Part shown: positions 5,300 to 21,658 of the stretch, piece by piece
Layout of the letters: each line of letters opens with the position of its first letter
How positions within the stretch are numbered: the first letter of the stretch is position 1
DNA from: a bacterium
Lineage (GTDB): Bacteria > Patescibacteriota > Minisyncoccia > Sungbacterales > SURF-37
Length of the DNA stretch: 64,000 bases
Assembly: GCA_030648055.1 (NCBI GenBank)
Contig: JAUSHI010000009.1
Coordinates: 47,722-111,721, forward strand
Direction: 5' to 3'
Notes under the pieces: generated by a model
Database searches by the model: none
Told to the model about the DNA's origin: nothing
What the model saw: only the letters and a program-made list of their open reading frames with translations
Program-made: the position numbers and the translations under genes

Positions 5300-5341
5300 A
5301 AATTAAAAGACCAGCTCGTGCGCTGGTTTTTTTAAAAATTT

Positions 5342-6113
5342 TTAGGATACGAATGGGATCAGGTCTTCCAGAGAACGAAGTGTTTGTATGCGCGGGTGCT
5401 CCAGGGGTTGCGATTGGAAACCTTCACCACGGTCATGAGGGTTGAAGAGGGGTGAGCTTGAACCGTGCGGCACATAGATACCGCTCCATTCCTTTCCAAG
5501 AGAGAGGGCGGGTAGAATGTCGTTGTCGCCATTGCCGATGGCGAACCACCATTCAAACCGAGAGCTATCGGAAGTGTATCCGCTTACGCGACAGAAATCA
5601 TCCGCGGTTTTCTTCTGTTCTGTTGCCTGTACGCGTTCCTGCGGAAAAAATTCAAAAATGTTCATGTGTGTGGCACGGCGATGGAATAGTGCGGTGTCAT
5701 AGCACGAAAGAAGACAAAGGCGATGGCCGCCCGCTTTCAGGTGTTGGAGAACAGCACGGGCTTCCGGCAACCATTCTAGTTTTGTGTAGTCAAAAGGCAG
5801 ATCACCGATTGCGCGGACAAGCATTTCATGTTCCTGGCGATAATAGTTTTTTCCGAAGCGCCATTTTGCCCATGTGCATACTTCTCGGTAGAAGAGCGCC
5901 ATCGCTTCCGCGACTCTGCCCCGCCGTACTCCCCATTCTTTGAAGAGTTCTAGGTCGATCTCAAAATAACGATCTTTGACGTAGTGCAGGTTAGGGACGT
6001 GTCCTGGAAGCAGTTCATAGAGCACGCGGAAGAATTCTGAACGGGCGTGAGAATATTGCCACTCATTCATCCAGAGCGTGTCATCAGCATCAAAGACGAA
6101 TTACGTTCGGCAT
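5342..6113 (-). pseudogene. HAD-superfamily hydrolase with an apparent 1-nt frameshift immediately after the start codon
   Basis: SD gaggagg plus the ATG at 6113 encode MPNV. One extra nt (~6101) then shifts the frame before the in-frame HAD motif I FVFDADDTLW, which precedes the first ATG (6070) of the long ORF. HAD motif IV (FAIGNGDNDIL) is present. Confidence 0.6.
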
Positions 6114-6232
6114 CTCGTCCTCCTCTTCGCAGGACCTTATTTTTTTAGTAGTATGTGAAAGTACTATTACTGGCTAGTTTATATTGCTTTTCTCGCGGGC
6201 ACAATTTTTCTTATACACAGTATTTGCACACT

Positions 6233-7498
6233 ATGCGCGACAAAGAAATTTTTTCACTCCTTCAGGAAGAAGCAAAGCGTCAGCAGGAGACGCTTGATTT
6301 GATACCGTCGGAAAATATTGCCTCCGCGGCGGTGCGCGAAGCGCTTGGCTCGGAATTTGTTAATAAGTATTCGGAAGGATATCCGGGAAAACGTTATTAC
6401 GGCGGGAATAAAATCGTTGACGAGGTTGAATTGCTCGCCCAAGAACGCGCGCGCAAAGTTTTTCATCTCGGTAAAAATTGGCACGTAAACGTTCAGCCGT
6501 ATTCGGGTTCTCCGGCAAATATGGCGGTCTATTACGCCCTTTTGGGTCCGTGTGAGTCTGCGCCAAGTCAGCGTAAGTCCGCGGATATTCTGGGCATGTC
6601 GCTTCCGTTCGGCGGGCATTTGACGCACGGATGGAAAGTTAATTTTTCGGGGAGATTTTATAAGTCGGCGCAGTACACGGTCGGTCGTGATGGGTTGATT
6701 GATTACAACGAAGTCGCGCGTCTCGCACGGAAAGAACGGCCAAAAATAATTGTAGCGGGCGCGACCGCGTATCCGCGGATTATTGATTTCAAAAAGTTTG
6801 CGGCCATCAGCCGCGAAGTCGGAGCGTATTTTATGGCGGATATCGCGCACATTGCCGGGCTTATTGCCGCCGGCGCTCATCCAACGCCTTTTCCTTTCGC
6901 GGATGTCGTGACAACGACCACGCATAAAACCCTTCGCGGCCCCAGAGGGGCTATGATATTCGCAAACAAAAATTCGCAGGTTGCAAAAAAGAATTTGGTT
7001 GATATTGCCTCAGCCATAGACCGAGCGGTATTTCCAGCCTTACAGGGCGGGCCTCATGACAACCAAACCGCAGCTATTGCCGTTGCGCTCGGCGAGGCCA
7101 TGGAGCCGTCGTTCAAAAAATACGGCCATCAGATCGTGAAAAACGCGAAAGTGCTTGCGCGCGAATTGCAAAAACTCGGATTCCGGCTGGTATCTGGCGG
7201 TACGGATAATCATTTGATGCTCGTGGACCTTACCAACCTCGGCATTTCCGGCAGAGAGGCCCAAGACCGGCTGGAGGAGGCGGGCATTATCGTCAACCGG
7301 AATACTATCCCGTACGATACGCGCTCGCCCTTTGATCCTTCAGGCATTCGTGTCGGCACACCATCAGTTACTACGCGAGGGATGAAAGAAAAAGAAATTA
7401 AAATAATTGCCGGATTTATTTATGAAGCTTTGACGAATGGCGGTGGGCGTGCTATGAATTTTAAAGTTAAAGCTCTTTGCAGAAAATTTCCTGTATAA
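6233..7498 (+). CDS. glyA: Serine hydroxymethyltransferase
   Basis: SHMT motifs (DLIPSENIASAAV, GYPGKRYYGG, HLTHG, PLP Lys in TTTHKTLRGPRG). The internal ATG at 6233 matches the canonical N-terminus. Confidence 0.92.
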   Translation: MRDKEIFSLLQEEAKRQQETLDLIPSENIASAAVREALGSEFVNKYSEGYPGKRYYGGNKIVDEVELLAQERARKVFHLGKNWHVNVQPYSGSPANMAVYYALLGPCESAPSQRKSADILGMSLPFGGHLTHGWKVNFSGRFYKSAQYTVGRDGLIDYNEVARLARKERPKIIVAGATAYPRIIDFKKFAAISREVGAYFMADIAHIAGLIAAGAHPTPFPFADVVTTTTHKTLRGPRGAMIFANKNSQVAKKNLVDIASAIDRAVFPALQGGPHDNQTAAIAVALGEAMEPSFKKYGHQIVKNAKVLARELQKLGFRLVSGGTDNHLMLVDLTNLGISGREAQDRLEEAGIIVNRNTIPYDTRSPFDPSGIRVGTPSVTTRGMKEKEIKIIAGFIYEALTNGGGRAMNFKVKALCRKFPV

Positions 7499-7505
7499 GG
7501 AGGGT

Positions 7506-7757
7506 TTGGCCATGACCATGAGGAAGCTAGAAATTTATAGCGGTATGATTATAATTTTATTGGGGATTGTATGGTTTGCTTTGATGACTTGGGCGATGAC
7601 TCTGCCCGGAGGAGGCGTTTACGTTTTACGGCACGGGGGTTCTGTTCATTCCGGTGAGTTTCTTTGGCAGACATTTGCAGTGTTAGTGGGTGTTTGGGCT
7701 GTTTTTATGGGGATGTTGGTTCTTAAAGAAGGGCGGAATACCAAAAAAGATCTTTGA
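7506..7757 (+). CDS. Small membrane protein (2 TM)
   Basis: A strong SD (aaggagg) sits 7 nt upstream and there are two hydrophobic helices. Function unknown. Confidence 0.45.
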   Translation: MAMTMRKLEIYSGMIIILLGIVWFALMTWAMTLPGGGVYVLRHGGSVHSGEFLWQTFAVLVGVWAVFMGMLVLKEGRNTKKDL

Positions 7758-7800
7758 TTAGGATGAGGAAGCCATCGCGCCTCCTCGGTAGTAGAATTTC

Positions 7801-7826
7801 GGTCCGCCTTAGGCGGATTTTTCTTT
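7801..7826 (+). terminator. Rho-independent terminator (tccgcc-tta-ggcgga + T-run)
   Basis: Hairpin followed by TTTTTCTTT, downstream of glyA and the small ORF. Confidence 0.6.
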
Positions 7827-7981
7827 GTCGAAACTCACTACCGGGCCTCGCTTTTTTGTTTGGTTTTTATCTTAATTCAAAATGACCGGCCGGCCATTTT
7901 TAATTAAGATAAATTTTGGGTGGGTTTTATTGGTTGATTTTGTTGGTTGAGAAAGATTCCAAAATTTGTTACATTTAATCC

Positions 7982-8821
7982 ATGATTTTACTTGATGGCA
8001 GAAAACTTGCCGAGAAAATTCTCTCCGGTTTAAGGGAGGAAATCGTAAAGCGCAAGAAATTATTGCGGCTTGCCGTTGTGGTCGTCGGTGAAAATCCGGT
8101 GACTTTGAAATTTATTGAACAAAAAACGAAGGTCGCGAAATCTATCGGCGTTGACGTACGCGTTTATCATTTTAAAGAAGGAGTTACGACAAACGCGCTT
8201 CGTAAAAATATCGCCGCGATTGTGCGAGAAAAGAAAAACTCCGGCGTTGTTATTCAGCTTCCTTTGCCGCCACACATTAATTCGCAATATATTTTGAATG
8301 CCGTTCCTTCGGAAAAAGACGCTGACGTATTGTCAGCCAAGGCCCTCGGCAATTTTTTTGTCGGTAAGGCGGCTGTTTTGCCGCCGGTTGTCGGCGCGGT
8401 CAAGGCCCTTTTTAAAGAATATAACATTGATTGCCGCGGAAAAAATATAGCGGTGGCGGGCGCGGGGCGTTTGGTCGGCAAGCCCGTTGTGGCATGGCTC
8501 ATAAACGAGACTGGCACGGTAAGCATAGTAAATGAATTTACAAAAGATATTACTCAGTTTACGCGCGGGGCCGATATTATTATTTCAGGGGTTGGAAAGC
8601 CGAAACTTATAACTGGCGACATGGTAAAGGAGGGGGTTGTGGTAATTGACGCGGGAACTTCAGAGGCGGGCGGGAAGATCGCGGGTGACGTTGATTTTGA
8701 TTCAGTATCCGGAAAAGCGGCTTATATTACTCCTGTTCCCGGGGGCATCGGGCCGGTAACAGTCGCGATGTTGCTTGATAATTTAGTTACGCTTTCTAAA
8801 CAGAAAAGACAGACAGAATAA
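7982..8821 (+). CDS. folD: Bifunctional methylene-THF dehydrogenase / methenyl-THF cyclohydrolase
   Basis: FolD pattern (LLDGRKLA, PGGIGPVTVAML) over 279 aa. Confidence 0.9.
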   Translation: MILLDGRKLAEKILSGLREEIVKRKKLLRLAVVVVGENPVTLKFIEQKTKVAKSIGVDVRVYHFKEGVTTNALRKNIAAIVREKKNSGVVIQLPLPPHINSQYILNAVPSEKDADVLSAKALGNFFVGKAAVLPPVVGAVKALFKEYNIDCRGKNIAVAGAGRLVGKPVVAWLINETGTVSIVNEFTKDITQFTRGADIIISGVGKPKLITGDMVKEGVVVIDAGTSEAGGKIAGDVDFDSVSGKAAYITPVPGGIGPVTVAMLLDNLVTLSKQKRQTE

Positions 8822-9045
8822 AAGTTAGGGAAAATTAATAGCCCCATGGTTGCTTGTCTTCCAGTTTTACTGAGTAATGTTTATAAAAAGGGGGTTGGCG
8901 CGGGGGACTGCCTTAGAATTAATTAGTTATTTTGAATAGTACTTTTCGTGCGAAAAGTACTATGGAGAGGTTATTTGTTATGGCTACTCAATCGTGTTTC
9001 GCAGACGGACCAAACAAAAAATGACGGCGAGTTCGTCATTTAAAT

Positions 9046-9264
9046 TTAAAAGAGGCATTCGGATACTATTTTCCAAAAACGTATTTTTTGCCCGGTATAG
9101 ATGTCGCGTATGAGGCGCATAATGATAACCGGCGTTCCGACGATTAAAAGCGGAATTCCAAAGATGAAAATTATGAGAATGAAATTTATGATGAATATGA
9201 ATAGCATATCGATGGTTAATTCCCAGATCGTCATTTTGTCTCCCCAGATTAAATTTACAAGCAA
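9046..9264 (-). CDS. Small membrane protein
   Basis: Hydrophobic 72-aa ORF with a downstream terminator hairpin. Weak support. Confidence 0.3.
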   Translation of the reverse strand: MLVNLIWGDKMTIWELTIDMLFIFIINFILIIFIFGIPLLIVGTPVIIMRLIRDIYTGQKIRFWKIVSECLF

Positions 9265-9311
9265 ATTTGATCTGGCGATCGATCAGTTTTGCGAATTGGT
9301 TTAGTCTTTGG

Positions 9312-9575
9312 TTAAATCATTAAAATTTTGCCGGTGCCGTCACAGCGCGCGCAAGGAATAAATTGAATATAGGGTGAATCGTGTGTTTCTGCGGGAAGTT
9401 TGGTTGCGCCGTTGCATGCGGGGCAGGTCATTATAAACAGAGTTGTTTCTTTTGGTCCGCGTTTTTGTTGGGTTATAAGTATTGCTATTATTATAATAAT
9501 AACCAGCGCGATAAGACCAAAAAGGAAAAGCGGGTCGTTTAGCCGGCTTCCAAAATCCGAAACAATGGTAAGCAT
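9312..9575 (-). CDS. Membrane-anchored zinc-ribbon protein
   Basis: N-terminal TM helix plus CPACNG...CARCDG (CxxC...CxxC). Confidence 0.35.
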   Translation of the reverse strand: MLTIVSDFGSRLNDPLFLFGLIALVIIIIIAILITQQKRGPKETTLFIMTCPACNGATKLPAETHDSPYIQFIPCARCDGTGKILMI

Positions 9576-9727
9576 TTATTGGCCCCTTATTATGAAGGCT
9601 TGTAAATGAACTTTTGCCTTCAGCGTATACCAATAGTTCATTTTGGCAAGTAGCGTGTTATGGGGCTTAAACAGCGCCCCTTTTAGATTAATGCGATGCG
9701 GTGGCGTTGAGTCATGATATAGATACC

Positions 9728-9756
9728 TTGACAGAATTTTTGATTTACGCTATAAT
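9728..9756 (+). promoter_or_regulatory. Consensus sigma70-type promoter (TTGACA-17-TATAAT)
   Basis: cTTGACAgaatttttgatttacgcTATAATgta lies about 65 nt upstream of the ATG at 9823. Confidence 0.65.
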
Positions 9757-9822
9757 GTAAGTCAAAGTCAGAGGAGAGTGATGATCTTTTCCAAAACAAA
9801 TCACCAACAGGAGGAAGTAGCG

Positions 9823-10221
9823 ATGAAAAAGGCATGGACGGTCGTATTTGCTCTGCTTTTCGTTTTCGTGTTCGGGCAGGCGTCTGCGGATGAGCTGGGG
9901 TTCGACCCCCAGCTGCTCGTCGGAGAGTACCATGGGACCTTCAAGGTGGAGGAGGGTGGCCAAACCATCAGTGGGTCAGTCTATGTCACTATCAAGAGCG
10001 TGGAGGGTGACAAGGTGGCGTGGGTTTTGTACTTCTCCGCGTCGGTTAGCAATGCCAGCTTCAACCGTGATATCAACGGTATGGGAAAGCTGGAGGGGAA
10101 TACGATTTCCTCCAATCGCGGAGGAGCCACAGTGGTGCTCAATGTGGTGGATAAGGACACGATTGATGGGTACGCTCGCGTGCGTAGCGCCACCAAGTTC
10201 ACGGTTACGAGGAAGAAGTAG
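9823..10221 (+). CDS. Secreted protein with signal peptide, unknown function; GC-rich relative to surroundings
   Basis: SD aggagg, then MKKAWTVVFALLFVFVFGQASA signal peptide. Codon usage is biased to G/C-ending codons, unlike neighbouring genes. Confidence 0.5.
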   Translation: MKKAWTVVFALLFVFVFGQASADELGFDPQLLVGEYHGTFKVEEGGQTISGSVYVTIKSVEGDKVAWVLYFSASVSNASFNRDINGMGKLEGNTISSNRGGATVVLNVVDKDTIDGYARVRSATKFTVTRKK

Positions 10222-10244
10222 CTCAAACCCCTCTGATTCACCAA

Positions 10245-10272
10245 GGTCCGCCTCCTGACGGACCTTTTAAAT
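10245..10272 (+). terminator. Rho-independent terminator
   Basis: ggtccg-cctcctga-cggacc followed by ttttaaattt. Confidence 0.6.
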
Positions 10273-10538
10273 TTCATAAAGATGAAATAGTGCTGAAAGC
10301 TTATGCGATAAATGGCACCACCCCGCGTTTTCAAAGCCACGGTTTTTATGGATTTACGAGGCAAATACGTTGTACCTGAATATCCGATGCTGTTCTCATT
10401 TTGGTTATAATAATTTATATTGAGGATGCGGTGCGGTAGTGATTTTACTTGGAGAGGTAACAATTTTTGGGTAAAAAATTTAATCAATAATTCAAATTAG
10501 CTGACGAAATCGCGACACGCAAAGTTTGTTTGTAAAAT

Positions 10539-10991
10539 ATGATATGGTATCTTAAAAAACGAGGAGTGTCCTTTTTAGAAAAGCAGGTGACCTGTGAAGA
10601 AAAAGAGATTGCCGCCGCACTTAAAAGATATTTTTCCATACTTAATACGCATGATTTAGATGGGCTTAGTGATATTCTGGCTGAAGATGCCGAGATGCAT
10701 TCGTATGCCGCCGGCAATCGTATGGTTGGGAAAGACGAGTTTATAAAAATTGTGAAAAAAATATTTCAAGGTGTTCGGCCGATTTATATGGAAAATACAA
10801 TGATAAGAATTGTCGGCGAATCGGCAATCGTCAATACGCTGTACTTACTACATTCTCATGGCCACGCATACGGTCCACAAAGAACACAGTTTGAATTTAA
10901 AAAAGAAAATGGTGGTTGGAAATTACATACACAGCTTTTTCTTGATCAGAATGTCTCCGGTAGCACCCCGTCAAAGCAAGATGTTACCTAA
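10539..10991 (+). CDS. SnoaL-like / NTF2-fold protein
   Basis: ALKRYFSILNTHDLDGLSDILAEDAEMH is typical of SnoaL/NTF2-like (DUF4440) domains. Confidence 0.5.
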   Translation: MIWYLKKRGVSFLEKQVTCEEKEIAAALKRYFSILNTHDLDGLSDILAEDAEMHSYAAGNRMVGKDEFIKIVKKIFQGVRPIYMENTMIRIVGESAIVNTLYLLHSHGHAYGPQRTQFEFKKENGGWKLHTQLFLDQNVSGSTPSKQDVT

Positions 10992-11027
10992 AAGTTAAAA
11001 GTAATATATCTAAAATTTATATTTTGT

Positions 11028-12047
11028 ATGGAAAAACCACACCGCTACGATAATAAAGAAGATATTTTATCGCAGCTAGACGCTTTATTAAAAAATGATT
11101 ATTTGGTGGTACAAATAGGGTTTGCTTTGGAGCGAATAGGTTTTTTTAAATTATTAGAGGAGCGGGGTAAAATCAATTTTAAAGAAATTGTTGAACTATT
11201 AAAAGTGCGAGAAGATTATTTAAGGGTGTGTACGGATTTTTTATGGGCGGCATCAAGTATTCTTGAAAGAGACAAGGATTTTTTTTCTTTGAAATATAAA
11301 ACCGTTGGACGAGGATTGTGGTGGTTGGCGGCGTATAAGCCGGTTCTTGATAATTTGGCCGGGCTTCTTACCGGAGAAAAATTATACGGCCGTGACGTAA
11401 AGCGAATCGGTCATTATCTCCAAAAAGCGTCGGATTTATCAAATCAGGATGCCGCAGATAAGGCTTTGTATTTATTAAGAAACGAAGGCGGCATTTTGGT
11501 AGATATGGGATGCGGGTCTGCCCATACACTAATTACATATTGCCAGGAAAAAGCAGGGCGCTATGGGGTCGGCATTGATGTAGATCCGGAAACTGTGCAA
11601 GAGGCGCGGCGGCACGTGAAAGGCGCGGCGCTGGAAGGATCCATTAGTATAGTTGAAAGCGATGCGTTTGAAGTTGAGAGATGGAGGGACGCAGTTCTTA
11701 AAAAACAGAAGGTTTTATTTTTGTTAAACACCGTTCTGCATGAATTTTTTCGGAACGGCGACGAAGCTGTGGCGGGCTTTTTACAGGAACTGAAAAAAGA
11801 ATTTCAAGATTCTAAATTGATTATTATTGAATTTGATGCCTGGGAGTTCAGCAAAATTAAAGAAGAGAAAGACAGAAATAAGGCCGCAGCTTTTTATGCG
11901 GCCAGATATCAATTAGTTCATCCTTTAACCGATCAGGGCATGCCACGGTCGCGTAAGGAGTGGGAAGATGTGATTAAAAAAGGGGGCTGGCAAGTAAAAG
12001 ATATTATACCCGCAGAATATAATTTGGTCATTTATAATTGCGCATAA
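11028..12047 (+). CDS. Class I SAM-dependent O-methyltransferase with N-terminal winged-helix dimerisation domain
   Basis: Motif I VDMGCGSAH, preceded by about 130 aa resembling the dimerisation domain of small-molecule O-MTs. Confidence 0.65.
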   Translation: MEKPHRYDNKEDILSQLDALLKNDYLVVQIGFALERIGFFKLLEERGKINFKEIVELLKVREDYLRVCTDFLWAASSILERDKDFFSLKYKTVGRGLWWLAAYKPVLDNLAGLLTGEKLYGRDVKRIGHYLQKASDLSNQDAADKALYLLRNEGGILVDMGCGSAHTLITYCQEKAGRYGVGIDVDPETVQEARRHVKGAALEGSISIVESDAFEVERWRDAVLKKQKVLFLLNTVLHEFFRNGDEAVAGFLQELKKEFQDSKLIIIEFDAWEFSKIKEEKDRNKAAAFYAARYQLVHPLTDQGMPRSRKEWEDVIKKGGWQVKDIIPAEYNLVIYNCA

Positions 12048-12102
12048 TATACCAAGATTATAGCGGGCCCGCGATGGGTTTTTTGGCATAGTGATGACTT
12101 TT

Positions 12103-13401
12103 CTATAGCGACTCATCAACATATGGAACAGTTTTGCCGTGGTTTGTAAGATTTGGCAGATAGCTCACAATTTTTATATCGGTTATAATATTACAGTCAT
12201 CTTTTAGTTGTCTTTTTAAAGATTCTAACTTGTTTGGCGGGACTTTTCCGTTGGCAATAATCCTTAATTCCAGGCGCCCGGATGTTATTCTGGCTAACTG
12301 GTATTGCACGATGAATCTGTCAAAATTATTTATTACGCCACTTATCTCAAGTAGCGTGATATGATTTTGACCGATATTAAGTGCGATTCCATCGCGGCCG
12401 TTGATAAAAAGCCTTTTTGACCGTACGCCGCAACGGCACCGTTTTTTCAGGATGACGCCGATATCACCTGTTTTATATCTGATGAAGGGCATAATCCGGT
12501 TATAAAAGTGAGTGAGCACTACATGGCCACTTTCTCCGTTAGCAACGGCACCCCCAGCATTATTAATTATTTCAACAATGAATGATTCCTCATTAATATG
12601 AAATCCTTTGTGCTCGGCGCATTCCATTCCAACCGGACCGAATTCCTCCAAACCGTACAGGTCATAGACACCCCCCTTGTTGCTCAGAATATTTTCAATA
12701 AAATATCGCTGGCCGTAAGATAAATTTTCTCCGTAAGATATTATGTAAGGAATTTTAATTGGTTGTACGCCAACACCAGCTTCTGCCATTGTACGCCCGA
12801 CCTCGGCCAATATCGTCGGAACACTTTCTAAAATAAAAGGCTGGAATGTTCCCAGCTTACTAATGACAGATCGGGCATTTTTTCTGACGTCCGAAACCGG
12901 AATAAATAAATAATTTTTTTTCAGCGGCATCGGCCGGAATCCTATGTGGGCGACTTTTAGCGCATCCATATTTTTATTGAATCCTTCCCAAAACAGAAAT
13001 CTGTATTTCGTAAAATCGTAATATCGTTTATCACCATAAACAGCGCTGACTAGGGTAATTGGGAACCGAAATGGTTCTCCAGTGGTGCCCGATGTCTGGC
13101 GCCATATGTATTTTCCTTGGTAATTCCAGTTTAGCAACAGGTTCCGGTCTTGCTGCTTTAGCGTTCTTTTGTCCATGATCGGGAGAATATCTATATCGTT
13201 GCGCGTTTTTATGCTGTCGGGATTTATTTTTGATTCTTTAAGTATGCGCGTGTAAAAAGGGACACCATCGTACGCAATTCCCAATAGTTTTTTTAGTTGA
13301 TGCGATTGCCACGCGTACACAATCGGCGAGGGGAGCTGATGTATAATGCTCCAGGCAGAAAATTTTATTTTGTTGTTTAAATTTTTTAGAAGCTGAATCA
13401 T
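12103..13401 (-). CDS. PaaK/CapK-like adenylate-forming enzyme (phenylacetate-CoA ligase / F390 synthetase family), paralog 1
   Basis: Adenylation motif TSGTTGEP and a length of about 430 aa. Confidence 0.75.
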   Translation of the reverse strand: MIQLLKNLNNKIKFSAWSIIHQLPSPIVYAWQSHQLKKLLGIAYDGVPFYTRILKESKINPDSIKTRNDIDILPIMDKRTLKQQDRNLLLNWNYQGKYIWRQTSGTTGEPFRFPITLVSAVYGDKRYYDFTKYRFLFWEGFNKNMDALKVAHIGFRPMPLKKNYLFIPVSDVRKNARSVISKLGTFQPFILESVPTILAEVGRTMAEAGVGVQPIKIPYIISYGENLSYGQRYFIENILSNKGGVYDLYGLEEFGPVGMECAEHKGFHINEESFIVEIINNAGGAVANGESGHVVLTHFYNRIMPFIRYKTGDIGVILKKRCRCGVRSKRLFINGRDGIALNIGQNHITLLEISGVINNFDRFIVQYQLARITSGRLELRIIANGKVPPNKLESLKRQLKDDCNIITDIKIVSYLPNLTNHGKTVPYVDESL

Positions 13402-13413
13402 GGAGGCCGTCGT

Positions 13414-14391
13414 TTAATTGTTGGTACTTGTCATGAGATTTAATATTTCCCGAATAAAATCTTCTTTTTGCGGAAGAGCGTACTTGCCGAAGCCATAAGG
13501 AATAGGAACATTTGCGGCCCCCAATTTTATAATTTTTATATCTGGACACGAACTCCGCGCGATATTTTCTATAATCGGGTAAAGTCCTCCTCCGGCCAGC
13601 GGTTCTTCGTCGGCAATAAGCAGCCTTTTTGTTTTACGGGAAGTTTCTTTTATTTTTTCTGTATCAAGGGGTTTAAGGCTGACTAAATCTAAGATTTCCA
13701 CATCTACGCCTTGTGTTTTCAGTTCGTCAGCGGCACTCTCCGCCATATCCGTCATTTGCGCGTGGGTTATTATTGTTACATCTTTGCCGGTTCTTCTGTA
13801 CTCTGCTTTTCCGGACGGGTATTTATAATCGGCATCGGTGGGTTGGCCTAATTTTTTATATAAACCCCAGTGTTCAAGAAAAATAATGACCTTACCCGTT
13901 GAAGTAAAGGCCGTGCGCAAAAGTCCTTGTGCCTGCTGCACTGTGCTCGGCGATATAATCACTACTCCAAGAAAATTAAAAAATTGGGAAATGAAAGGAA
14001 TGGAAAGTTGTCCGCCCACCTTGCCGCCCCCCCAACGCACTCTTATGATTGTTGATGGCATGGTTGTGCGCGTGCACATCATGCTCCATATTCCCGATAA
14101 GAAAATATCAGAAGCGGCAATGGTAATAAGCGTGCCGTGGGCAAACTCTACTATTGGACGAAGTCCCGCTTGCGCGGCCCCCAGAGCAATGCCTACAAAA
14201 AGCTCTTCATTGATAGGCGTTTCTCGTATTCGTTCTTCACCAAATTCATCAATGAATCCTTTGGTAATGCCGTCTCTTCCCCCCCATTTTCCTATGTCCT
14301 CTCCCATTATGAAAAGGCGAGAGTCCTTTCTCATCTCATCATGGAGGACTTCTTTGATTGCCTCGGATATTGTGATGTTATTTGTTGACAT
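13414..14391 (-). CDS. TPP-dependent dehydrogenase E1 component, beta subunit-like (transketolase-like C-terminal fold)
   Basis: E1-beta pattern (MGEDIGKWGG...ETPINEELFVGIALGAAQAGLRPIVEF) over 325 aa. Confidence 0.8.
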   Translation of the reverse strand: MSTNNITISEAIKEVLHDEMRKDSRLFIMGEDIGKWGGRDGITKGFIDEFGEERIRETPINEELFVGIALGAAQAGLRPIVEFAHGTLITIAASDIFLSGIWSMMCTRTTMPSTIIRVRWGGGKVGGQLSIPFISQFFNFLGVVIISPSTVQQAQGLLRTAFTSTGKVIIFLEHWGLYKKLGQPTDADYKYPSGKAEYRRTGKDVTIITHAQMTDMAESAADELKTQGVDVEILDLVSLKPLDTEKIKETSRKTKRLLIADEEPLAGGGLYPIIENIARSSCPDIKIIKLGAANVPIPYGFGKYALPQKEDFIREILNLMTSTNN

Positions 14392-15463
14392 CGGAGTTTT
14401 CCATTAATAGTTCATCTTTAGATAACTCTTTTTGCGCACGCGCCTGGTCAAGGGCCTCTTGTACTTCACGTTCTGCCTTTTTTTCCAATACAGAAAGAGA
14501 AGCTTCGTCGGCAATATTATGTGCAATAATTTTTTTTCGCGTTGAAAGAACGGGGTCTGTCTGCTCTTTGTTGGCGGTGTCCAGAAAATTATTATCCAAC
14601 GTGTCCGACATAAAAAAAGCTTCGTGTGGTACACGCCTATAAGTTTTTATTTCTAAAAAAGCCGGAGCAGATTCGTGTCTTGTTTTTTCAAACATTTTTT
14701 TTGCTACAGGGAAAACTTTAAATAAGTCATCACCCTCGACGCAGTCGGAAAATAAGCCGATTGATCTCGCCTTTTCAAAATATGGCCTGGCGGTAAGACG
14801 AGACAGCGGTGTTGTTACGGAAAGCTGATTATTTTCGCATACCCAAATAATCGGCAATTTCCAAAGCACAGAAAGATTAAGCGCGCTGTATAATGTTCCT
14901 CGAGAGGCCGCACCGTCTCCGAAGAATATGGCAACGACACGGTCGTCATTAAAAAATCTTGCCGCCACACCCATGCCGACTGCGATTGAAAAACCGTTTC
15001 CCAGCATGCCCCCCTGGGGGAAAACGCCATATTGCGGTAACATAAAATTTATAGGTGAGACGCCTTTACCCATGCAAACGCCAGTTTTTTTACCCAAAAT
15101 TTCTGCGGCGATAGCTCTTAACGGAACACCCTTACTTAGTGCCACAGCAAAACCTCTATAGTAAGGAAGCAGAAAGTCTTTATTCTCTAAAAGTCCGCCA
15201 ACGGCGGCCTGTCCGGCTTCTTGCCCTCTTCCTTCGAAAAAACTTCTTTTTAGGAGCATATTTTTATCAGCCAGCTCCTTGACTTTTATTTCCAAAATTC
15301 TTGCCGTGACCATATGTTCCCACATTTTTAACACTGCTGCCCCTAATTCCGTATTTTTTTTTAAAAAACTATCGTTAAAAAGCGCAGTCTCGTCGTTGTT
15401 GCCATGGTTGCCCCCCCTTTTTTCTTCTGGTAGTGTCATAATATCGGGTTGGTTTATGCGCAA
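14378..15463 (-). CDS. TPP-dependent dehydrogenase E1 component, alpha subunit-like
   Basis: TPP motif FFGDGAASRGTLYSALNLSVLWKLPIIWVCENNQ. It overlaps the beta-subunit gene by 14 nt, consistent with translational coupling. Confidence 0.8.
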   Translation of the reverse strand: MRINQPDIMTLPEEKRGGNHGNNDETALFNDSFLKKNTELGAAVLKMWEHMVTARILEIKVKELADKNMLLKRSFFEGRGQEAGQAAVGGLLENKDFLLPYYRGFAVALSKGVPLRAIAAEILGKKTGVCMGKGVSPINFMLPQYGVFPQGGMLGNGFSIAVGMGVAARFFNDDRVVAIFFGDGAASRGTLYSALNLSVLWKLPIIWVCENNQLSVTTPLSRLTARPYFEKARSIGLFSDCVEGDDLFKVFPVAKKMFEKTRHESAPAFLEIKTYRRVPHEAFFMSDTLDNNFLDTANKEQTDPVLSTRKKIIAHNIADEASLSVLEKKAEREVQEALDQARAQKELSKDELLMENSDVNK

Positions 15464-15498
15464 ACCCCTAAATAATTTATAGAAACAACTATATAATT

Positions 15499-16245
15499 AT
15501 GTTTTTAGCAGATTCTTTAAAATATATTTCGGCCGATTTTTATGAAAAGACTGTTGGTACGCCGCTGGAAAAAAAATCAATAATGAGGGTTGCGCAAATT
15601 GTGCGGGCCAGGGCGCTTGAAGGAAGCAAAAAAAACGTTCTTGACATAGGTTGTGGAAGCGGTGTGCTCGCCGTAGAATTGGCCGACATTAAAACAATAG
15701 AATATATCGGTATAGATATCAATGAAGGGTTTATAAAGAGGGCTCGGGAGCGATTAAATTCTCATCATAATTTTACCTTTTTCGTAGAGGATATAGCGCG
15801 ATATTGCCCGAATCTTAAATTTGATATAATTATTCTTTGCGGCACCTATCATCATATTCCGGACGAGCATAAAGCCGTTGTGCTACGGCGGGTTGCAAGC
15901 GTTCTTGCGGAAAGAGGCATCGTGGTTTTATATGAAAAATTGCTTGCTCCGTATTCCACAAAAAAAGAGTTTATTTCCGCAAATAGGATTTTTTATAGAA
16001 AAAGATTTGCTGCTCAATTTCTCGCCGGAGAAATAGGACCCCGGCATCTATTGGCCCTTCTAAAAATAGGTTTAGGGGATATATCTGCGTTTCAGGAATA
16101 TAAGATTGATTATCAGCGCCTCATCTCATATTTTTTTTCGCACGGGCTTGTACCTGTTGAAGAACACAAGATCTGGCCAGCAAGAAATTTATTCAAAAAA
16201 AATAATATCGGCGATTTTATTTTTGTATTTGCACATGGAAATTAA
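15499..16245 (+). CDS. Class I SAM-dependent methyltransferase
   Basis: Motif I VLDIGCGSGVLAVELA. Confidence 0.7.
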   Translation: MFLADSLKYISADFYEKTVGTPLEKKSIMRVAQIVRARALEGSKKNVLDIGCGSGVLAVELADIKTIEYIGIDINEGFIKRARERLNSHHNFTFFVEDIARYCPNLKFDIIILCGTYHHIPDEHKAVVLRRVASVLAERGIVVLYEKLLAPYSTKKEFISANRIFYRKRFAAQFLAGEIGPRHLLALLKIGLGDISAFQEYKIDYQRLISYFFSHGLVPVEEHKIWPARNLFKKNNIGDFIFVFAHGN

Positions 16246-17008
16246 ATTTCATAATAAAATAATACTAGTTACCGGATCAACGCGTGGTATCGGGAAAGAA
16301 ATTGCCCGAGCATTTGGAGAGGCCGGGGGCAACATCATTATTAATTCCAGGCGGGAAGAGGCGGTTGAGGATACGGTAGATGAATTTAGAAAGTCCGGTT
16401 ATCAGGCTGTCGGTTACGCCGCGGATGTCGGCAGTTGGGATTCGGTTAAAAAACTCATGGAATTTATAGGAGCGACACACAAACGTCTGGATGTGATCGT
16501 TAATAATGCGGGAATCAGTTTTCCTTTGGCGGGCGTTAGTGAAATGGCGGTGGAAGATTGGGATAATATCTTGAAGACAAATCTTAGCGGTCCGTTCTTT
16601 GTCGCTAAAGCGGGGCTTCCACTCATGCAGTATGCCGGTGGAGGAAGTATAATTAATATAGGTTCCATGGCTTATCTCCTACAGATAGGATCGCCTAATC
16701 CAGCATATAGCGCCGCTAAGGGCGGATTAGTTTCTCTTACCAAAGCTTTGGTTAAGGATTGCTCGCCTCATAAAATTCGCGTAAATGCGATCAGTCCCTG
16801 GTATGTAAAAAATGATAAATTTGATGATATTTTTAAAAAAGCAGGAATTGACCAGAATTATGCGGCCGAACGGAATCCATTAGGCAGGACCGCTTTACCG
16901 GCAGATATTTCCAGTTTGGCGTTATTTCTGGCTTCAGACCACGCGTCGTTTATTAGCGGTCAAGTAATTCATGTTAGCGGAGCGGCAGAGGTTTTGATTA
17001 GAAAATAA
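16235..17008 (+). CDS. Short-chain dehydrogenase/reductase (SDR)
   Basis: VTGSTRGIGKEIA glycine motif and SDR topology over about 257 aa. The start is taken at the internal ATG 16235, which overlaps the upstream stop. Confidence 0.8.
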   Translation: MEIKFHNKIILVTGSTRGIGKEIARAFGEAGGNIIINSRREEAVEDTVDEFRKSGYQAVGYAADVGSWDSVKKLMEFIGATHKRLDVIVNNAGISFPLAGVSEMAVEDWDNILKTNLSGPFFVAKAGLPLMQYAGGGSIINIGSMAYLLQIGSPNPAYSAAKGGLVSLTKALVKDCSPHKIRVNAISPWYVKNDKFDDIFKKAGIDQNYAAERNPLGRTALPADISSLALFLASDHASFISGQVIHVSGAAEVLIRK

Positions 17009-17039
17009 TTTTTATAAAATCTTTTGGAGTTATTATAGT

Positions 17040-18140
17040 TTGATTAATAATGCCATGGAAGACGTAAAAATTTTGCTTGCATTATTGCGGGTGATAATAG
17101 GACGGGATTATTTTTTCCCCACAAGCAAAACAATAAAAAATTTTGAAACCGCTTTTGCAACGCTAGTCAGTTCTGCACACGCATTCGGTGTTTCTAACGG
17201 AACTGATGCGCTAATAATGGCTCTGAAGGCCTGCGGTATACAGGCGGGTGATGAAGTAATTGTCCCGGCTTCAGGTTTCATTGCAACCGCCTCGTGTGCC
17301 GCATGGATCGGCGCGAGGCCGGTATTTGTAGATATTGATTTCCGCACTTTTAATATTAATCCCTCTCTTATAGAAAATTATATTACTATTAAAACAAAAG
17401 CAATTATTGTTACGCACCTCAATGGCAGAATGGCGGACATGGATAAAATTTCTGCTATTGCAAAAAAACATAACCTATTCCTTATAGAAGATGCGGCTCA
17501 GGCTGTAGGTTCAAAATACAGAGGGGAATCAGCGGGGCATTACGGGGACATGGCTTGTTTTAGCTTCAATCCGTCCAAGGCGTTAGCGGCTTATGGAGAC
17601 GGAGGGGCGGTGGTTACAAATAATATTTCTCTTGCGGAAAAAATATCGTTAATGAGAACATACGGCGCCCGTTTTAAGGAAATTTCCGCCCACCATAAAA
17701 TTATAGGCGTAGCGAGCCGTTTGGGGGCGTTGCAGGCCGCTATATTATTGATTAAACTTGAAAATATTTCCTCTGTTATTGAGGCATGGAGACATAATTA
17801 TTTTCTTTATTTTGAGGCGCTTCGCGGTGTTGGTGATTTGATTCTTCCGGAAGTGAGCGATGATTTTTTTATCAACGGTTATCGTTTTGTGGTGCTTACA
17901 AAAAAGAGAAACGATTTACAGCAGTTTTTAAGAAAGAACGGCGTAAATAGTCATATCCAGTACGGAGTTTCAATCCCGTATTTTGAAGCTTTTTCTTATC
18001 TTCAACATAAAAGGGGGGAGTTTCCAGAAAGCGAACGGGTGGCATTCGAAAGCATTGTTCTTCCAACTGCTCCTATTTTTCGAGAAAATGATATTTATCG
18101 CGCAGTGGCGCTTATAAAAAAGTTTTTTGCGAATTTGTAA
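17040..18140 (+). CDS. DegT/DnrJ/EryC1/StrS family PLP-dependent sugar aminotransferase
   Basis: Fold-type I AT pattern with SFNPSKALAAYGDGGAVVTNN (PLP Lys). Confidence 0.85.
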   Translation: MINNAMEDVKILLALLRVIIGRDYFFPTSKTIKNFETAFATLVSSAHAFGVSNGTDALIMALKACGIQAGDEVIVPASGFIATASCAAWIGARPVFVDIDFRTFNINPSLIENYITIKTKAIIVTHLNGRMADMDKISAIAKKHNLFLIEDAAQAVGSKYRGESAGHYGDMACFSFNPSKALAAYGDGGAVVTNNISLAEKISLMRTYGARFKEISAHHKIIGVASRLGALQAAILLIKLENISSVIEAWRHNYFLYFEALRGVGDLILPEVSDDFFINGYRFVVLTKKRNDLQQFLRKNGVNSHIQYGVSIPYFEAFSYLQHKRGEFPESERVAFESIVLPTAPIFRENDIYRAVALIKKFFANL

Positions 18141-18206
18141 AGAATTATTGAGAAGGCGAAATCGGGATCGGTTATACATTTTTTAATTTGACGGTAAAAA
18201 TAAAAG

Positions 18207-19115
18207 ATGATATCAATACATATCAAGCCAAGGTTCTTTAAAACCAAAGGAGCGGCAAAAATGGGAAGTACTCATGGGTTTAATGGGAGTCGGGAAGATG
18301 TTCTAAGAATATGGGAAAAAAATTCGGAAGGGTGGTTTTCTGTCGGTTCTCCTTGGAGGCCGTCCGCCGGCGATGTAAGAGTATATCAAAAATTGTGCGG
18401 TTCAAGGATTAACGGCAGAGTGCTGATTCTTGGTTCTACTTCGGAATTGCGCGAGCTTGTAGCATCGCAACATAATAGTCCGGTTTTGGTAGACATTAGT
18501 TTCGCAATGCTTCAAAAAATGAGTCAGTCATTAACGCATGGCGACCAGGCAAATGAAATATGGATCAAATCTGATTGGTGTGAGGCGCCCCTACGGTCAA
18601 ATTACTTTGATCTTATTATCGGCGATATGGTATGGTGGGTTGTTTCGGTAGATTCACAGTTTAGACTGCGTGACAAAATAGCGGACCTTCTTGCCCCGGA
18701 CGGCATATTTGTTTCACGTTTTCGTCTGATAGGGGCGGGCAACGGACAGCACAATCCGCGCGGAGTGGTAAAGGAGTATTTGGCGAAGTACGAAGCAAAC
18801 CCTGAAAATGAAATTTTGTTGCGGAATGCCATGATGTCGCGGCTTTATGACAGTACTGCCGATGTCGGAACGAAACGTCTTAATCGCGAGAGAGCAAAAG
18901 TGATTTTGTCGGAGGTTTCGGATGGTCTGGATAATTCCAGGCACCGCGCTTTTCTTTCTGCGGCCTCAGAAAGACTTTTGAGCGCTGATTGGACAGCCCA
19001 GACGAGAGAAGAGATTTTTTCCATTTTAGCGGATAAGTTTGAGCTTTTTTCAGAGATGCACGCAACTGATTATGAGTCAGAATATTATCCAATAGTTTCA
19101 TTTAAGAAAAAATGA
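18207..19115 (+). CDS. Hypothetical protein with a methyltransferase-like Rossmann fold and a degenerate SAM loop
   Basis: VLILGSTSE replaces GxGxG. Post-I (LVDIS) and motif III-like (LLAPDGIFV) elements are present. Confidence 0.35.
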   Translation: MISIHIKPRFFKTKGAAKMGSTHGFNGSREDVLRIWEKNSEGWFSVGSPWRPSAGDVRVYQKLCGSRINGRVLILGSTSELRELVASQHNSPVLVDISFAMLQKMSQSLTHGDQANEIWIKSDWCEAPLRSNYFDLIIGDMVWWVVSVDSQFRLRDKIADLLAPDGIFVSRFRLIGAGNGQHNPRGVVKEYLAKYEANPENEILLRNAMMSRLYDSTADVGTKRLNRERAKVILSEVSDGLDNSRHRAFLSAASERLLSADWTAQTREEIFSILADKFELFSEMHATDYESEYYPIVSFKKK

Positions 19116-20485
19116 GCTTAAAGTGGTTTGCTAAAAAAATTATAATTTCAGCTCCTTTTTCTGTGGAGTATTCTTCGGAATATGTTCCATCTATTATCAA
19201 ATCAACCGCCAAAAGGGTTGATTTTTTATTGCAAAATTGGGCCTTGACCCAATCTGATTCTTTTTCCGGGGAAGAATGGCGTAAAATTCAGCTTATTAAA
19301 CTGAAGAAATTGTTGATTCATGCCAGAGAGGGTGTGCCTTCTTGGGATGATCTTTTTAAAAAGATCGGTTTTATTCCAGAAAAATTTGAACGATTTGAAG
19401 ACTTGCGACACATTCCGGTGATTACCCGCGCCGATATAAAAAAAATCCCGATTGAAGCTCTTACTGCCAAAAACATTCCTCGCTGGCGTTTTAAAGAAGC
19501 AGTGACATCGGGTTCTACAGGAGAGCCGCTGAAATTTTTTCAAGACCTCCGCGATAACTTACGGCGAGAGGTAAACACCTTTCATGAATTAAGATACGCT
19601 GGTGTTTCTTATCGCGATAATATAGTGGTATTGGATTTGGATAAGCATAATGATTTGAACAATTTCGGCAAGCGATTCAGCAGTATTGAGTGGGGCGACA
19701 GCAAATTCAGGCAATCCGTCATTTACCCTTATCTGAAATTAAAGCCGGCGGTGCTTATCGCCAACGGAAGCAATTTGAGAAGATTTTTATTTTTAATCCG
19801 GCAGGAAGCTCCAGACACAATTTTTAAAACTTTAATGTACCGGGGCGAGCACATAAGCAAGTCGGAGCGTAATAATATTTCCCGATTTTTTAAATGTCCA
19901 ATTTTTACCTGTTACGGCAGTCGGGAAACTTCACTTTTAGGAATTGAATGCGAATATCACAAATTACATTTAGCGCCGTGGATGAGTTATTTTGAAGTTG
20001 TATCGGACAGCGAACAAACCGTCCCCGAAGGCGATGAAGGCAATGTGGTTGTAACTTTTTTTGAAAATTTTGTTATGCCGTTTATGAGGTATAAAATTGG
20101 CGATAGGGCGATAATAAATACCGAATCGTGTTCTTGCGGCCGAAAATCAAAAACAATTAATTTTTTTGGGCGGGAGTCGGAATTTATTAAATTTCCGGAT
20201 TCCAATAAAAGCTTATCAATTCTTAGTTTGACGCGTCGCGTCGATGAAAATTATTGTAATAGTATTGGGCAGTATCAGTTTGAATTGATAGGCGAAAGGC
20301 TGATAGTATTTCGTTACGTTCCAGTTTCAGCAGTAAATGAAACGGAAAAGAATAATTTAAGCGGTTTGCTGGAAAAGGCTTTGGGGCATCAGTTTCGCAT
20401 TGTGCTGGAAGAAGTGGCGGCAATAAATCCATTAGCCGACGGCAAAACCCCAATTTTAATAAGAAATAAGCCGCGCAATTTGTAA
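19112..20485 (+). CDS. PaaK/CapK-like adenylate-forming enzyme, paralog 2
   Basis: TSGSTGEP motif. The overall architecture is collinear with the 12103..13401 product. Confidence 0.75.
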   Translation: MSLKWFAKKIIISAPFSVEYSSEYVPSIIKSTAKRVDFLLQNWALTQSDSFSGEEWRKIQLIKLKKLLIHAREGVPSWDDLFKKIGFIPEKFERFEDLRHIPVITRADIKKIPIEALTAKNIPRWRFKEAVTSGSTGEPLKFFQDLRDNLRREVNTFHELRYAGVSYRDNIVVLDLDKHNDLNNFGKRFSSIEWGDSKFRQSVIYPYLKLKPAVLIANGSNLRRFLFLIRQEAPDTIFKTLMYRGEHISKSERNNISRFFKCPIFTCYGSRETSLLGIECEYHKLHLAPWMSYFEVVSDSEQTVPEGDEGNVVVTFFENFVMPFMRYKIGDRAIINTESCSCGRKSKTINFFGRESEFIKFPDSNKSLSILSLTRRVDENYCNSIGQYQFELIGERLIVFRYVPVSAVNETEKNNLSGLLEKALGHQFRIVLEEVAAINPLADGKTPILIRNKPRNL

Positions 20486-20684
20486 CGCCATGAATGAATT
20501 ATTTCTAAAACTAAAAATTATCAACGCCTTGGCCAGAATTGTCTTGAAGGGGGAAAATACCGGAGATTTTATGTTAGGCAAGCCGGTCCAGATTTTTGAA
20601 CGATCTTTATTTGATTAAGTTTTAATCCCACGAGAACGAGTGTCTCATCCTTCTGACTAATTATTTATTAACAAAAGAAAATAT

Positions 20685-21658
20685 ATGTCAATAGCAGGAC
20701 CTCAATACTCCATAGTTATTCCAACTTATAATCGCGCCAAAACTCTCGCTTTAACCCTAAATTCTGTTTGCCAACAAACCCTTTCGCCTGAAAAATATGA
20801 GATCTTGGTGGTTGATGACGGATCATCGGATAACACTAAAGAAGTTGTTTTACATATCCAAAAAAATATTCTCACTGCGGTATCCTTTATTTCCATGAAC
20901 AAACCGGCGGTCCCGCTAAGGCCAGGAACTTGGGCATCAAAGAATCCAAAGGCGAAATTATATTTTTTACCGATGACGACTGCATAGTGCCGCCGGACTG
21001 GATGGCAACGCTTTTAGACGGATATAAGAGACATACGGAGGTTGTCGGGGTGGGGGGATGGCATATACCGCCGGATGGAGAACTTGAAAAAAGCGCTACC
21101 TCGCGATATACCCATTATGAAAGTTTTTATCACGACCGTTTTAACCAATCTCTTATATTTTATGAGGTTTTGACTAATAATCCTGTTATGTTTTTTGGAA
21201 CTTTCGCTTATAACACGGCGAATATATGCTATAAAAAGGAAATATTGCGAAAGGTCGGCGGTTTCAAAGAAGATTTTTACTGGCCCGGAAGCGAAGATAA
21301 CGACCTTGCCTTTAGAGTCGCGCAAGCCGGGTACTGTCTGCTTTATCTGCCATTTAATGTAATCCATTCAAAAGCCATGAATTTGTTAGAATTTATGAAA
21401 CTCCATTTCCGCCGAGGGGCCAATGGTTACTTTTTGCGTACTATGCATGTTGATATTCTCAAAAAACAAAACCCCGGATTTATTAAAGATTATGGTTCGA
21501 TAAAATATTTTATCCATCATCTCAATGGTCCGGAAAAGTTTTTGGCATTTTTGGAATGGCTTAGTTTAAACGCTGGCATTATGTATATGAAAAATAAATT
21601 AACCGAACGCGACAAGCCAGTACTTTCCAAACCAGAGGAAAAAATTAGTAACGATTGA
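20685..21658 (+). pseudogene. GT2 family glycosyltransferase, interrupted by a -1 frameshift at an A7 tract (~20859-20865)
   Basis: ORF 20685..20987 carries IVIPTYNRAKTL...LVVDDGSSDNT. The next frame carries FHEQTGGPAKARNLGIKESKGEIIFFTDDDC. Changing A7 to A8 fuses them into one intact GT2. Confidence 0.6.

Follow-up and report, generated by a model that had tools for sequence, protein, structure and literature searches.

The E1-like gene pair and its neighbourhood

A 64,000-nucleotide stretch of DNA from a bacterium of the GTDB lineage Patescibacteriota; Minisyncoccia; Sungbacterales; SURF-37 (GenBank assembly GCA_030648055.1, contig JAUSHI010000009.1, forward-strand positions 47,722 to 111,721), analysed here over its full length and called the window, carries two adjoining genes whose products resemble the alpha and beta subunits of E1, the thiamine diphosphate (ThDP)-dependent component of pyruvate dehydrogenase (PDH) and related complexes. 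The E1 alpha-like, ThDP-binding subunit is encoded on the reverse strand at 14378..15463 if the open reading frame (ORF) is counted from the first in-frame TTG at 15463; its start is likely to be the ATG at 15439, which gives 353 aa, as in the identical NCBI protein P0001. The beta-like subunit, with its pyrimidine-binding and C-terminal domains (Transket_pyr 5e-18, Transketolase_C 1e-20), is encoded on the same strand at 13414..14391. Its ATG (14391-14389) lies within the end of the alpha gene, whose stop TAA occupies 14380-14378, and the 14-nt overlap between the alpha stop and the beta start (14378..14391, reverse strand) reads ATGTCAACAAATAA. Both genes and their overlap had been proposed from the letters and ORF translations before any database search (hereafter, the sequence-only reading), and Pfam domains and direct reading of the sequence confirm them.

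The alpha subunit matches Pfam E1_dh (8e-48) and carries the ThDP motif GDG-X26-NN, reading FFGDGAASRG...VCENNQ (G174-D-G...N203-N204); a TPP_enzyme_C match is confined to the cofactor loop (1e-4). With E1 of the PDH, branched-chain and acetoin complexes, represented by Geobacillus stearothermophilus E1p (PDB 1W85/3DUF), the pair shares the fold, the subunits, the GDG...NN motif and the counterparts of Glu59-beta and H271-alpha, at 32-38% identity to the E1p chains. Nevertheless, both subunits fall below the NCBIfam cut-offs for PDH E1, the alpha subunit with 200.5 bits versus 393.85 (TIGR03182) and the beta subunit with 199.8 bits versus 321 (NF006667), and thus reach about half of these equivalog cut-offs. 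The nearest named homologues of the pair include acetoin:DCPIP oxidoreductases.

The sequence-only reading had also seen no gene for a lipoyl-E2 or E3 nearby. This is borne out in the 64-kb window, where a Pfam scan of 30 ORFs, the long ones included, revealed no Biotin_lipoyl, 2-oxoacid_dh, E3_binding or Pyr_redox_dim protein. No E2/E3 gene was found in any of the eight loci that were compared by blastp and phmmer, namely the window, L002, L003, L012, L013, L014, L100 and L020, the last being very short and of no use for comparing gene content. In contrast, homologues of 30-35% identity that bear the beta His discussed below have an E2 gene right after E1 beta (L008-L011, L101, L102, and L103) or nearby (L007). 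The pair might still be a classical catabolic E1, acting on pyruvate, branched-chain or acetoin substrates with E2 and E3 encoded elsewhere in the genome: its best family-level similarity is to PDH and acetoin E1, and the E2/E3 scan covered a 64-kb window of the genome. The lack of E2 in eight of eight loci, when His-bearing homologues have it adjacent, and the location of the pair in a glycan locus speak against this, as do the active-site changes described below. We also counted against it that bacteria of the candidate phyla radiation (CPR) usually lack such complexes; a literature search for statements on PDH in Parcubacteria found nothing. In our judgement a classical E1 of this kind is very improbable.

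Downstream, 12 nt past the E1 beta stop and in the same operon, begins the gene for a PaaK-like adenylate-forming ligase, Lig432 (12103..13401, reverse strand), which has NCBIfam matches of the PaaK, F390-synthetase and DVU_1553 types and a PDB match to PaaK (4r1l, 1.7e-23). On the other side, divergent from E1 alpha and 36-60 nt off the alpha start, stands the class I S-adenosylmethionine (SAM) methyltransferase MT248 (15499..16245, forward strand; Pfam Methyltransf_25, _31, and _12; generic matches only in the PDB). The sequence-only reading was right in placing a PaaK-like ligase and a methyltransferase at these two flanks. The forward strand continues with a classical short-chain dehydrogenase/reductase (SDR; 16235..17008; Pfam adh_short_C2 5e-56), a DegT/DnrJ/EryC1 sugar aminotransferase (17040..18140; Pfam 9e-93) in which the active-site Lys motif SFNPSK is present, a methyltransferase-like protein of the uncharacterised family MTl302 (18207..19115; weak Methyltransf_11 and _25; no PDB sequence match), and a second PaaK-like ligase, Lig457 (19112..20485; NCBIfam PaaK-type matches). 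Beyond Lig432, also on the forward strand, lie the genes for MT339, a member of the alpha-keto-acid C-methyltransferase family (11028..12047; NCBIfam TIGR04543, 2-ketoarginine methyltransferase, 7.5e-25), and for a small NTF2/SnoaL-like protein (10539..10991; Pfam SnoaL_3, DUF4440, and SnoaL_2 on the identical gene in L001). On the far side of Lig457 are a GT2 glycosyltransferase gene split in two frames (20685..21658, forward strand), whose C-terminal part matches Pfam GT2 and whose N-terminal part was read from the sequence, a further GT2 gene (21599..22720, reverse strand; Pfam Glycos_transf_2 8e-29), and a gene for a NAD-dependent epimerase/dehydratase-family protein (22692..23567, reverse strand; Pfam Epimerase 4e-19, a partial match). 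The closest PDB entries for the DegT enzyme are the nucleotide-sugar 3-aminotransferases QdtB (5e-75), DesV and WbpE; with this QdtB-like enzyme, the GT2 genes and the epimerase-family gene around the pair, its assignment to a glycosyltransferase/aminotransferase locus stands.

Much of this gene set recurs in the compared loci, so that the label "orphan", previously given to the pair, is misleading: it is the core of a conserved multi-gene cassette. Directly upstream of E1 alpha is the SDR gene, which overlaps it by 4 nt in two loci (L003 and L012) and adjoins it in two more (L013 and L100), whereas the window has the SDR gene in divergent orientation. The DegT aminotransferase and the NTF2/SnoaL-like protein both occur in the window, L003, L012, L014, and L100; the NTF2-like homologues outside the window are weak but reciprocal, and their genes adjoin SDR or E1 beta. 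MT339 is present in the window, L012, L013, and L014, and its gene overlaps the E1 beta stop in L012. One or two copies of the MTl302 family are found in each of L003, L012, L013, and L014. Lig432 directly follows E1 beta in three loci (the window, L002, and L003), and Lig457 is found in the window, L012 (65% identity), and L014 (46% identity). A 49%-identical fragment of MT248 lies upstream of E1 alpha in L002, and in the window and L014 the cassette has homologous GT2 glycosyltransferases at its flanks. Small proteins encoded between E1 beta and the ligase in L002 and L003 were considered as one family and rejected; they are unrelated, one being PNPOx-like, with no counterpart in the window, and the other NTF2-like.

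Active-site residues in a rare clade

Homology searches with the alpha and the beta subunit give scores that fall sharply beyond a handful of proteins; for beta they run 724, 427, 316, 288, and 273 bits and then drop to 207. The clade to which the pair belongs comprises 7-8 close members, 30-60% identical to one another, with about 80 of 325 beta columns invariant. It was aligned with the other 115-117 top homologues, and columns at least 85% conserved in the latter were listed. The register to the Geobacillus chain agrees with the published numbering for Q81, F82, F85, T124, P125, E126, and H128 (PMC2663715).

The cofactor site is intact: the GDG...NN motif, the cofactor-activating beta Glu62 (E59-beta of the Geobacillus enzyme), and alpha His272 (H271-alpha) are all kept in the clade. 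The surroundings have changed. The beta motif H-S-Q, with His in 115 of 115 other top homologues, has become L-S-x in all clade members, and the window protein has Leu129 at the position of H128-beta, with no His within ten residues on either side. At beta position 85 (F82-beta) the inner clade always has His, and the extended clade has either His or Tyr. At position 88 (F85-beta), where 115 of 115 others carry Phe, four of five clade members have Leu (Leu88 in the window). In the alpha subunit the His of the G-S-x-H motif is replaced by Asn or Ser, the conserved Glu ten residues past GDG by Ser or Gly, and an Arg peculiar to the clade comes after GDG (GDG[AT]A[ST]R). The inner clade in addition has a two-residue hydrophobic insertion in the outer loop, three residues past alpha His272. 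In the window protein these alpha changes are Asn131, Ser185, Arg180, and an FF insertion after His272. The new residues invariant in the clade are beta His85, beta Asn61-Glu-Glu-Leu, and alpha Arg180. With respect to G. stearothermophilus E1p, the pair thus differs in H128-beta to Leu, F82-beta to His, F85-beta to Leu (in most members), the outer-loop insertion, and the lack of E2/E3.

H128-beta, the counterpart of the lost His, touches the 2-oxo group and the carboxylate of pyruvate and is nested among F82-beta, F85-beta, T124-beta, and P125-beta. It has been proposed to donate the proton in the reductive acetylation of lipoate and was described as required in all E1s, the H128Q and H128N variants keeping less than 5% of complex activity (PMC2663715). 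The sub-cut-off NCBIfam scores, the loss of this His, and the absence of E2/E3 nearby support the view that the pair is not a classical E1 of PDH or another 2-oxoacid dehydrogenase, as far as can be judged from sequence; the remodelled outer loop past alpha His272 points the same way. If so, the annotation labels "pyruvate dehydrogenase E1" and "transketolase C-terminal domain protein" in CPR genomes would wrongly imply pyruvate oxidation.

The loss of a residue held essential in canonical E1 could also be taken to mean that the pair is a relic devoid of catalysis or a partner with a structural role only. Such decay is hardly credible for proteins that keep the ThDP/Mg motif, Glu62, and His272 across members only 30-60% identical and that have acquired new clade-invariant residues. 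A change of donor would be another way to account for the missing contact with pyruvate's 2-oxo group and carboxylate: an alpha-hydroxyketone, diketone or ketose might be cleaved, as by acetoin- or transketolase-like enzymes, and the fragment passed to an acceptor. The acetoin:DCPIP oxidoreductases among the nearest named homologues, which are able to use methylacetoin or diacetyl, would fit this scheme. We consider it improbable, since a methyltransferase of an alpha-keto-acid family is co-conserved with the pair, the clade-specific Arg180 could bind a carboxylate, and no gene evidently supplies a donor of this kind.

TP-x-NEE-[LI] combined with Leu, or another residue that is not His, in place of H128-beta may serve as a simple sequence marker by which lipoyl-independent E1-like enzymes are told from true E1s. 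Several candidates outside the clade were rejected. Non-His variants (Phe, Gln or Met in the beta-129 column; L072-L087, P0280, P0450, and P0472) are alignment-register effects, since these proteins read PF-H-SQ or Q-H-S and keep the His at an inserted position; in P0472 an E2 lies immediately downstream. The Chloroflexi SDR-E1a-E1b triads L015 and L017, found by the TPxNEE motif, retain both HSQ and EIMYSDF and do not belong to the clade. On a contig from a peat or soil metagenome (L099), two E1 alpha/beta pairs follow each other in tandem at 4896..8978, and there is no E2 within 13 kb; the pairs adjoin genes for a hydrolase, a xylose-isomerase-like TIM-barrel protein, and ABC transporters. 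The second beta subunit has Leu at the position of the catalytic His and lacks the other clade signatures, and may represent an independent loss of the His.

Cassette partners and proposed chemistry

The most informative partner of the pair is MT339. Its match to TIGR04543 spans residues 30-323, the full length, and lies below the equivalog cut-off. Against the PDB, the MT339 family profile finds, in this order, MrsA (5.7e-16), MppJ (1.3e-14), and SgvM (3.5e-11), and matches other methyltransferases through the SAM core only. The invariant H238 and H298 of MT339 align with H243 and H295 of MppJ (H244 and H296 of SgvM), which are the two residues coordinating the metal to which the alpha-keto acid binds (PMC10502145). 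MT339 therefore resembles MrsA, a 2-ketoarginine methyltransferase, and MppJ, a phenylpyruvate C-methyltransferase, in both full-length similarity and the two metal-ligand His residues. Because of this likeness to MrsA, MppJ, and SgvM, an alpha-keto acid is very likely to be an intermediate of the cassette, as predicted from the protein families. E1 enzymes are themselves ThDP enzymes that use alpha-keto acids. To our knowledge, alpha-keto-acid C-methyltransferases come from antibiotic pathways, and we know of none from glycan loci or CPR bacteria.

The reading that we favour, though at somewhat less than an even chance, is that the pair is a lipoyl-independent ThDP carboligase of alpha-KADH2 architecture, which would move a decarboxylated alpha-keto-acid unit onto a keto sugar within a glycan-tailoring cassette. 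We infer each chemical step, as well as the identities of donor and acceptor, as follows. The ThDP ylide, activated by beta Glu62, would add to the alpha-keto acid, either pyruvate or, more likely, a keto acid first C-methylated by MT339, the methyltransferase of the MrsA/MppJ/SgvM type. Decarboxylation would give the enamine ("active aldehyde"), which, instead of reducing a lipoyl disulfide, would attack the keto-sugar carbonyl and yield a tertiary alpha-hydroxy-ketone, that is, an acyl branch. The SDR could then reduce the branch ketone, and/or the QdtB-like DegT enzyme could aminate the ring or branch ketone. The methyltransferases and PaaK-like ligases might decorate the product by N/O-methylation and N-acylation, and the GT2 enzymes might place it in a surface polymer. 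Speaking for this reading are the intact cofactor site, Leu in place of the lipoate-protonating His, NCBIfam scores near half the PDH E1 cut-offs, the lack of E2/E3 in the compared loci, the recurring cassette, a DegT enzyme nearest to nucleotide-sugar 3-aminotransferases, a GFO/IDH/MocA dehydrogenase in L002 of a type that produces 3-keto sugars, and the precedents that follow.

Enzymes of this established kind are known. E1-alpha/beta-type ThDP enzymes add a pyruvate-derived acetyl branch to a keto sugar; the known cases include AviB1/AviB2 of avilamycin, AlmDI/DII of aldgamycin, the kosinostatin and trioxacarcin enzymes, Pau11/Pau12 (Plm8/Plm9) of paulomycin, followed by the ketoreductase Pau7, and KbDH-alpha/beta of kibdelomycin, which was tested in vitro with cyclic ketones (PMC12247030, PMC4425429, PMC4802897, PMC4753412). 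A 2025 review counts about 120 alpha-KADH2 clusters, in which the branch ketone is later reduced, methylated, oxidised or transaminated; the enzymes appear specialised for C2 branches and specialised metabolites, and no structure exists (PMC12247030). The pair resembles AviB1/B2, AlmDI/DII, Pau11/12, and KbDH in its two-gene E1 alpha/beta organisation among sugar-tailoring genes, without E2/E3 and, as seen here from gene context, alongside a reductase, a transaminase, and methyltransferases (PMC12247030, PMC4425429, PMC4753412). It differs in its host and setting: the alpha-KADH2 enzymes are actinobacterial, belong to antibiotic clusters and use pyruvate, whereas this pair comes from Candidatus Sungiibacteriota and lies beside GT2 genes of a probable surface glycan. 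Co-conservation with an alpha-keto-acid C-methyltransferase and PaaK-like ligases is likewise unlike the alpha-KADH2 descriptions. In addition, the pair has lost the beta His.

A second relevant system is that of the YerE-type enzymes, which branch envelope-glycan sugars, are paired with a reductase (YerF, ErwF), and can use alpha-keto acids tailored by their cluster (PMC9306805). The cassette shares with YerE/YerF and ErwE/ErwF a ThDP carboligase, an adjacent NAD(P)H reductase, a surface glycan, and the combination of a tailored keto acid with a keto sugar, as far as these can be predicted for it. However, YerE-type enzymes are single-chain members of the decarboxylase (acetolactate-synthase-like) superfamily, an architecture that differs from the split E1 alpha/beta proteins found here, which do not belong to this group even if they may act in a similar way. 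Their clusters carry CDP-sugar genes, and the ErwE donor is tailored by an aldolase, not a methyltransferase (PMC9306805). By analogy, the cassette may combine an alpha-KADH2-like catalyst with the envelope-glycan setting, coupled reductase, and donor-tailoring enzyme of a YerE-like system. Two sets of possible actinobacterial comparators among branching enzymes were discarded. One of the top actinobacterial matches, P0016, belongs to a catabolic cluster with E2, and two megaplasmid pairs inspected after a tblastn search against plasmids (L102 and L103; 695 records) have E2 directly downstream and are canonical.

The sequence-only reading had put forward acyloin or two-carbon transfer onto a sugar nucleotide, rather than pyruvate oxidation, as the role of the pair. 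The rejection of PDH-type oxidation is retained. Transfer of the acyloin type is plausible, since E1-alpha/beta-like enzymes offer a direct precedent (PMC12247030, PMC4425429) and the partner genes (the coupled SDR, the QdtB-like aminotransferase, the methyltransferases and GT2) fit. The sugar-nucleotide acceptor stays conjectural, there being no nucleotidyltransferase or 4,6-dehydratase in any locus, as do pyruvate as the donor and the two-carbon unit. Indeed, the co-conserved alpha-keto-acid C-methyltransferase and the loss of the pyruvate-contacting His suggest that the donor is perhaps a different or tailored keto acid.

Several points weigh against the carboligase proposal. The missing genes for a nucleotidyltransferase and a 4,6-dehydratase are one of them; the possible acceptor-making genes are a GFO/IDH/MocA oxidoreductase in L002, which we take to be of the type making 3-keto sugars for WbpE-like transaminases, and the short epimerase-family protein in the window. 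Simple sugar branching gives no reason why the pair should be so closely linked to a PaaK-like ligase, and a literature search on PaaK/F390-synthetase-like enzymes in glycan amidation yielded nothing usable. Several of the clade-specific substitutions raise the hydrophobicity of the site, which is not obviously suited to a nucleotide sugar. H128-beta also aids the first half-reaction, and the H128A and H128N variants of the Geobacillus enzyme are poor decarboxylases (PMC2663715), so that activity on keto acids would call for some residue to compensate, and His85 or Arg180, both invariant in the clade, are the candidates. Finally, the likeness of the pair to the characterised branching enzymes is an analogy drawn from gene context and published descriptions.

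Some of these observations would fit if the pair made a non-sugar side group. In that case a C-methylated keto acid would be decarboxylated or carboligated to an aldehyde or acyloin. After reduction by the SDR, or amination, the PaaK-like ligases would attach this product through an amide bond to an amino sugar or a uronic acid in the glycan. The alpha-keto-acid C-methyltransferase is not only co-conserved but translationally coupled to E1 beta in L012, a PaaK-like ligase directly follows E1 beta in three loci, the active site is more hydrophobic, and no genes that form nucleoside diphosphate sugars are present in the cassette. On the other hand, the DegT enzyme is close to nucleotide-sugar aminotransferases (see QdtB above) and not to amino-acid transaminases, an aldehyde dehydrogenase that could provide the ligase with an acid is absent, and no precedent for such a route with an E1-alpha/beta enzyme was found. 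We regard a side group of this sort as unlikely, though a serious competitor.

Within the carboligase proposal, a more specific version is doubtful and yet worth stating: the rebuilt E1 clade, with its dedicated C-methyltransferase, might install a methylated or longer-than-C2 acyl branch on a surface-glycan sugar, which would then be aminated and N-acylated by the PaaK-like ligases. It would be the first alpha-KADH2-type branching system outside actinobacterial antibiotic clusters and the first with a tailored donor, and would constitute a rare complex glycan pathway in organisms of minimal metabolism. If the carboligase proposal in its general form is true, E1-type sugar branching reaches from actinobacterial antibiotics to the surface glycans of episymbiotic, uncultured bacteria. 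The clade would then provide a naturally occurring variant of the active site with which ThDP enzymes that form tertiary alcohols, a group without known structure, could be studied and engineered, and the product would be an unusual, strain-variable surface sugar that may matter for host attachment.

Distribution and genomic setting

The clade is rare. An exhaustive profile search of 1.84 billion cluster representatives gave 10,153 relatives at E<=1e-10; when the clade signature was checked in the best 150 of these, it was present in only about 20. A pattern scan of one genome per species (185,579 species) added a single further member, L014, from Candidatus Sungbacteria bacterium RIFCSPLOWO2_02_FULL_51_17, and one short contig, L020, came from scanning 241 million metagenome records. 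Every clade member with taxonomy belongs to Candidatus Sungiibacteriota, a CPR lineage; L003, for instance, is annotated as Candidatus Sungiibacteriota (Patescibacteria/Parcubacteria group). In L014 the E1 alpha gene (~9145..9993) holds a masked stretch (X) that makes the N-terminus and the upstream region unreadable, and no SDR was found beside it, possibly owing to this stretch. Another clade member, P0004, known as a protein from a 4.1-kb ENA contig, covers alpha and beta in a single predicted chain of 600 aa; its C-terminus is garbled, and His is lacking at alpha-272. A frameshifted low-coverage sequence probably lies behind it, and not a true fusion.

The region of 10-28 kb (~10000..28600) has a GC content of 0.38-0.43, versus 0.44-0.50 in the flanks, and ends near tRNA-Leu(CAA) (28517..28600, reverse strand), the sole tRNA gene in the window. 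The neighbouring ParA (28682..29443) is 85% identical to the ParA beside the L003 cassette, which places the window in the same candidate-phyla lineage as L003. By comparison, the cassette proteins of the two loci share only 38-50% identity, and TPR genes are found at the flanks of both cassettes. Given the low GC content, a ParA that is conserved next to diverged cassette proteins, and the shared TPR flanks, the locus looks like a strain-variable surface-glycan island at a conserved chromosomal site. A terminator scan performed no better than on shuffled sequence and promoters were modestly enriched; neither was used.

As for the glycosyltransferases, the frame of the split GT2 gene (20685..21658) changes at or near a run of seven A (~20852-20858), the DxD-bearing N-terminal part and the rest (...GGPAKARNLGIKESKGEIIFFTDDDC...) each being open in a separate frame; misassembly, a pseudogene or a tract prone to slippage could account for it. 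Beside the cassette in L014 lies a gene for an 816-aa glycosyltransferase (16957..19407, reverse strand) that fuses a TagF-like CDP-glycerol glycerophosphotransferase to a GT2 domain, a fusion that hints at a teichoic-acid-like polymer as the substrate decorated by the modified sugar.

Further along the window, the gene at 27063..27743 (forward strand) encodes a 226-aa protein that has an N-terminus resembling a signal anchor, runs of poly-Pro and poly-Gly, and a beta-rich domain at the C-terminus; the C-terminal part is 66% identical to the product of a gene in L003, and the protein is probably a surface protein beside the glycan locus. The mirror ORF at 27293..27820 (reverse strand) is likely an artefact of the low-complexity sequence.

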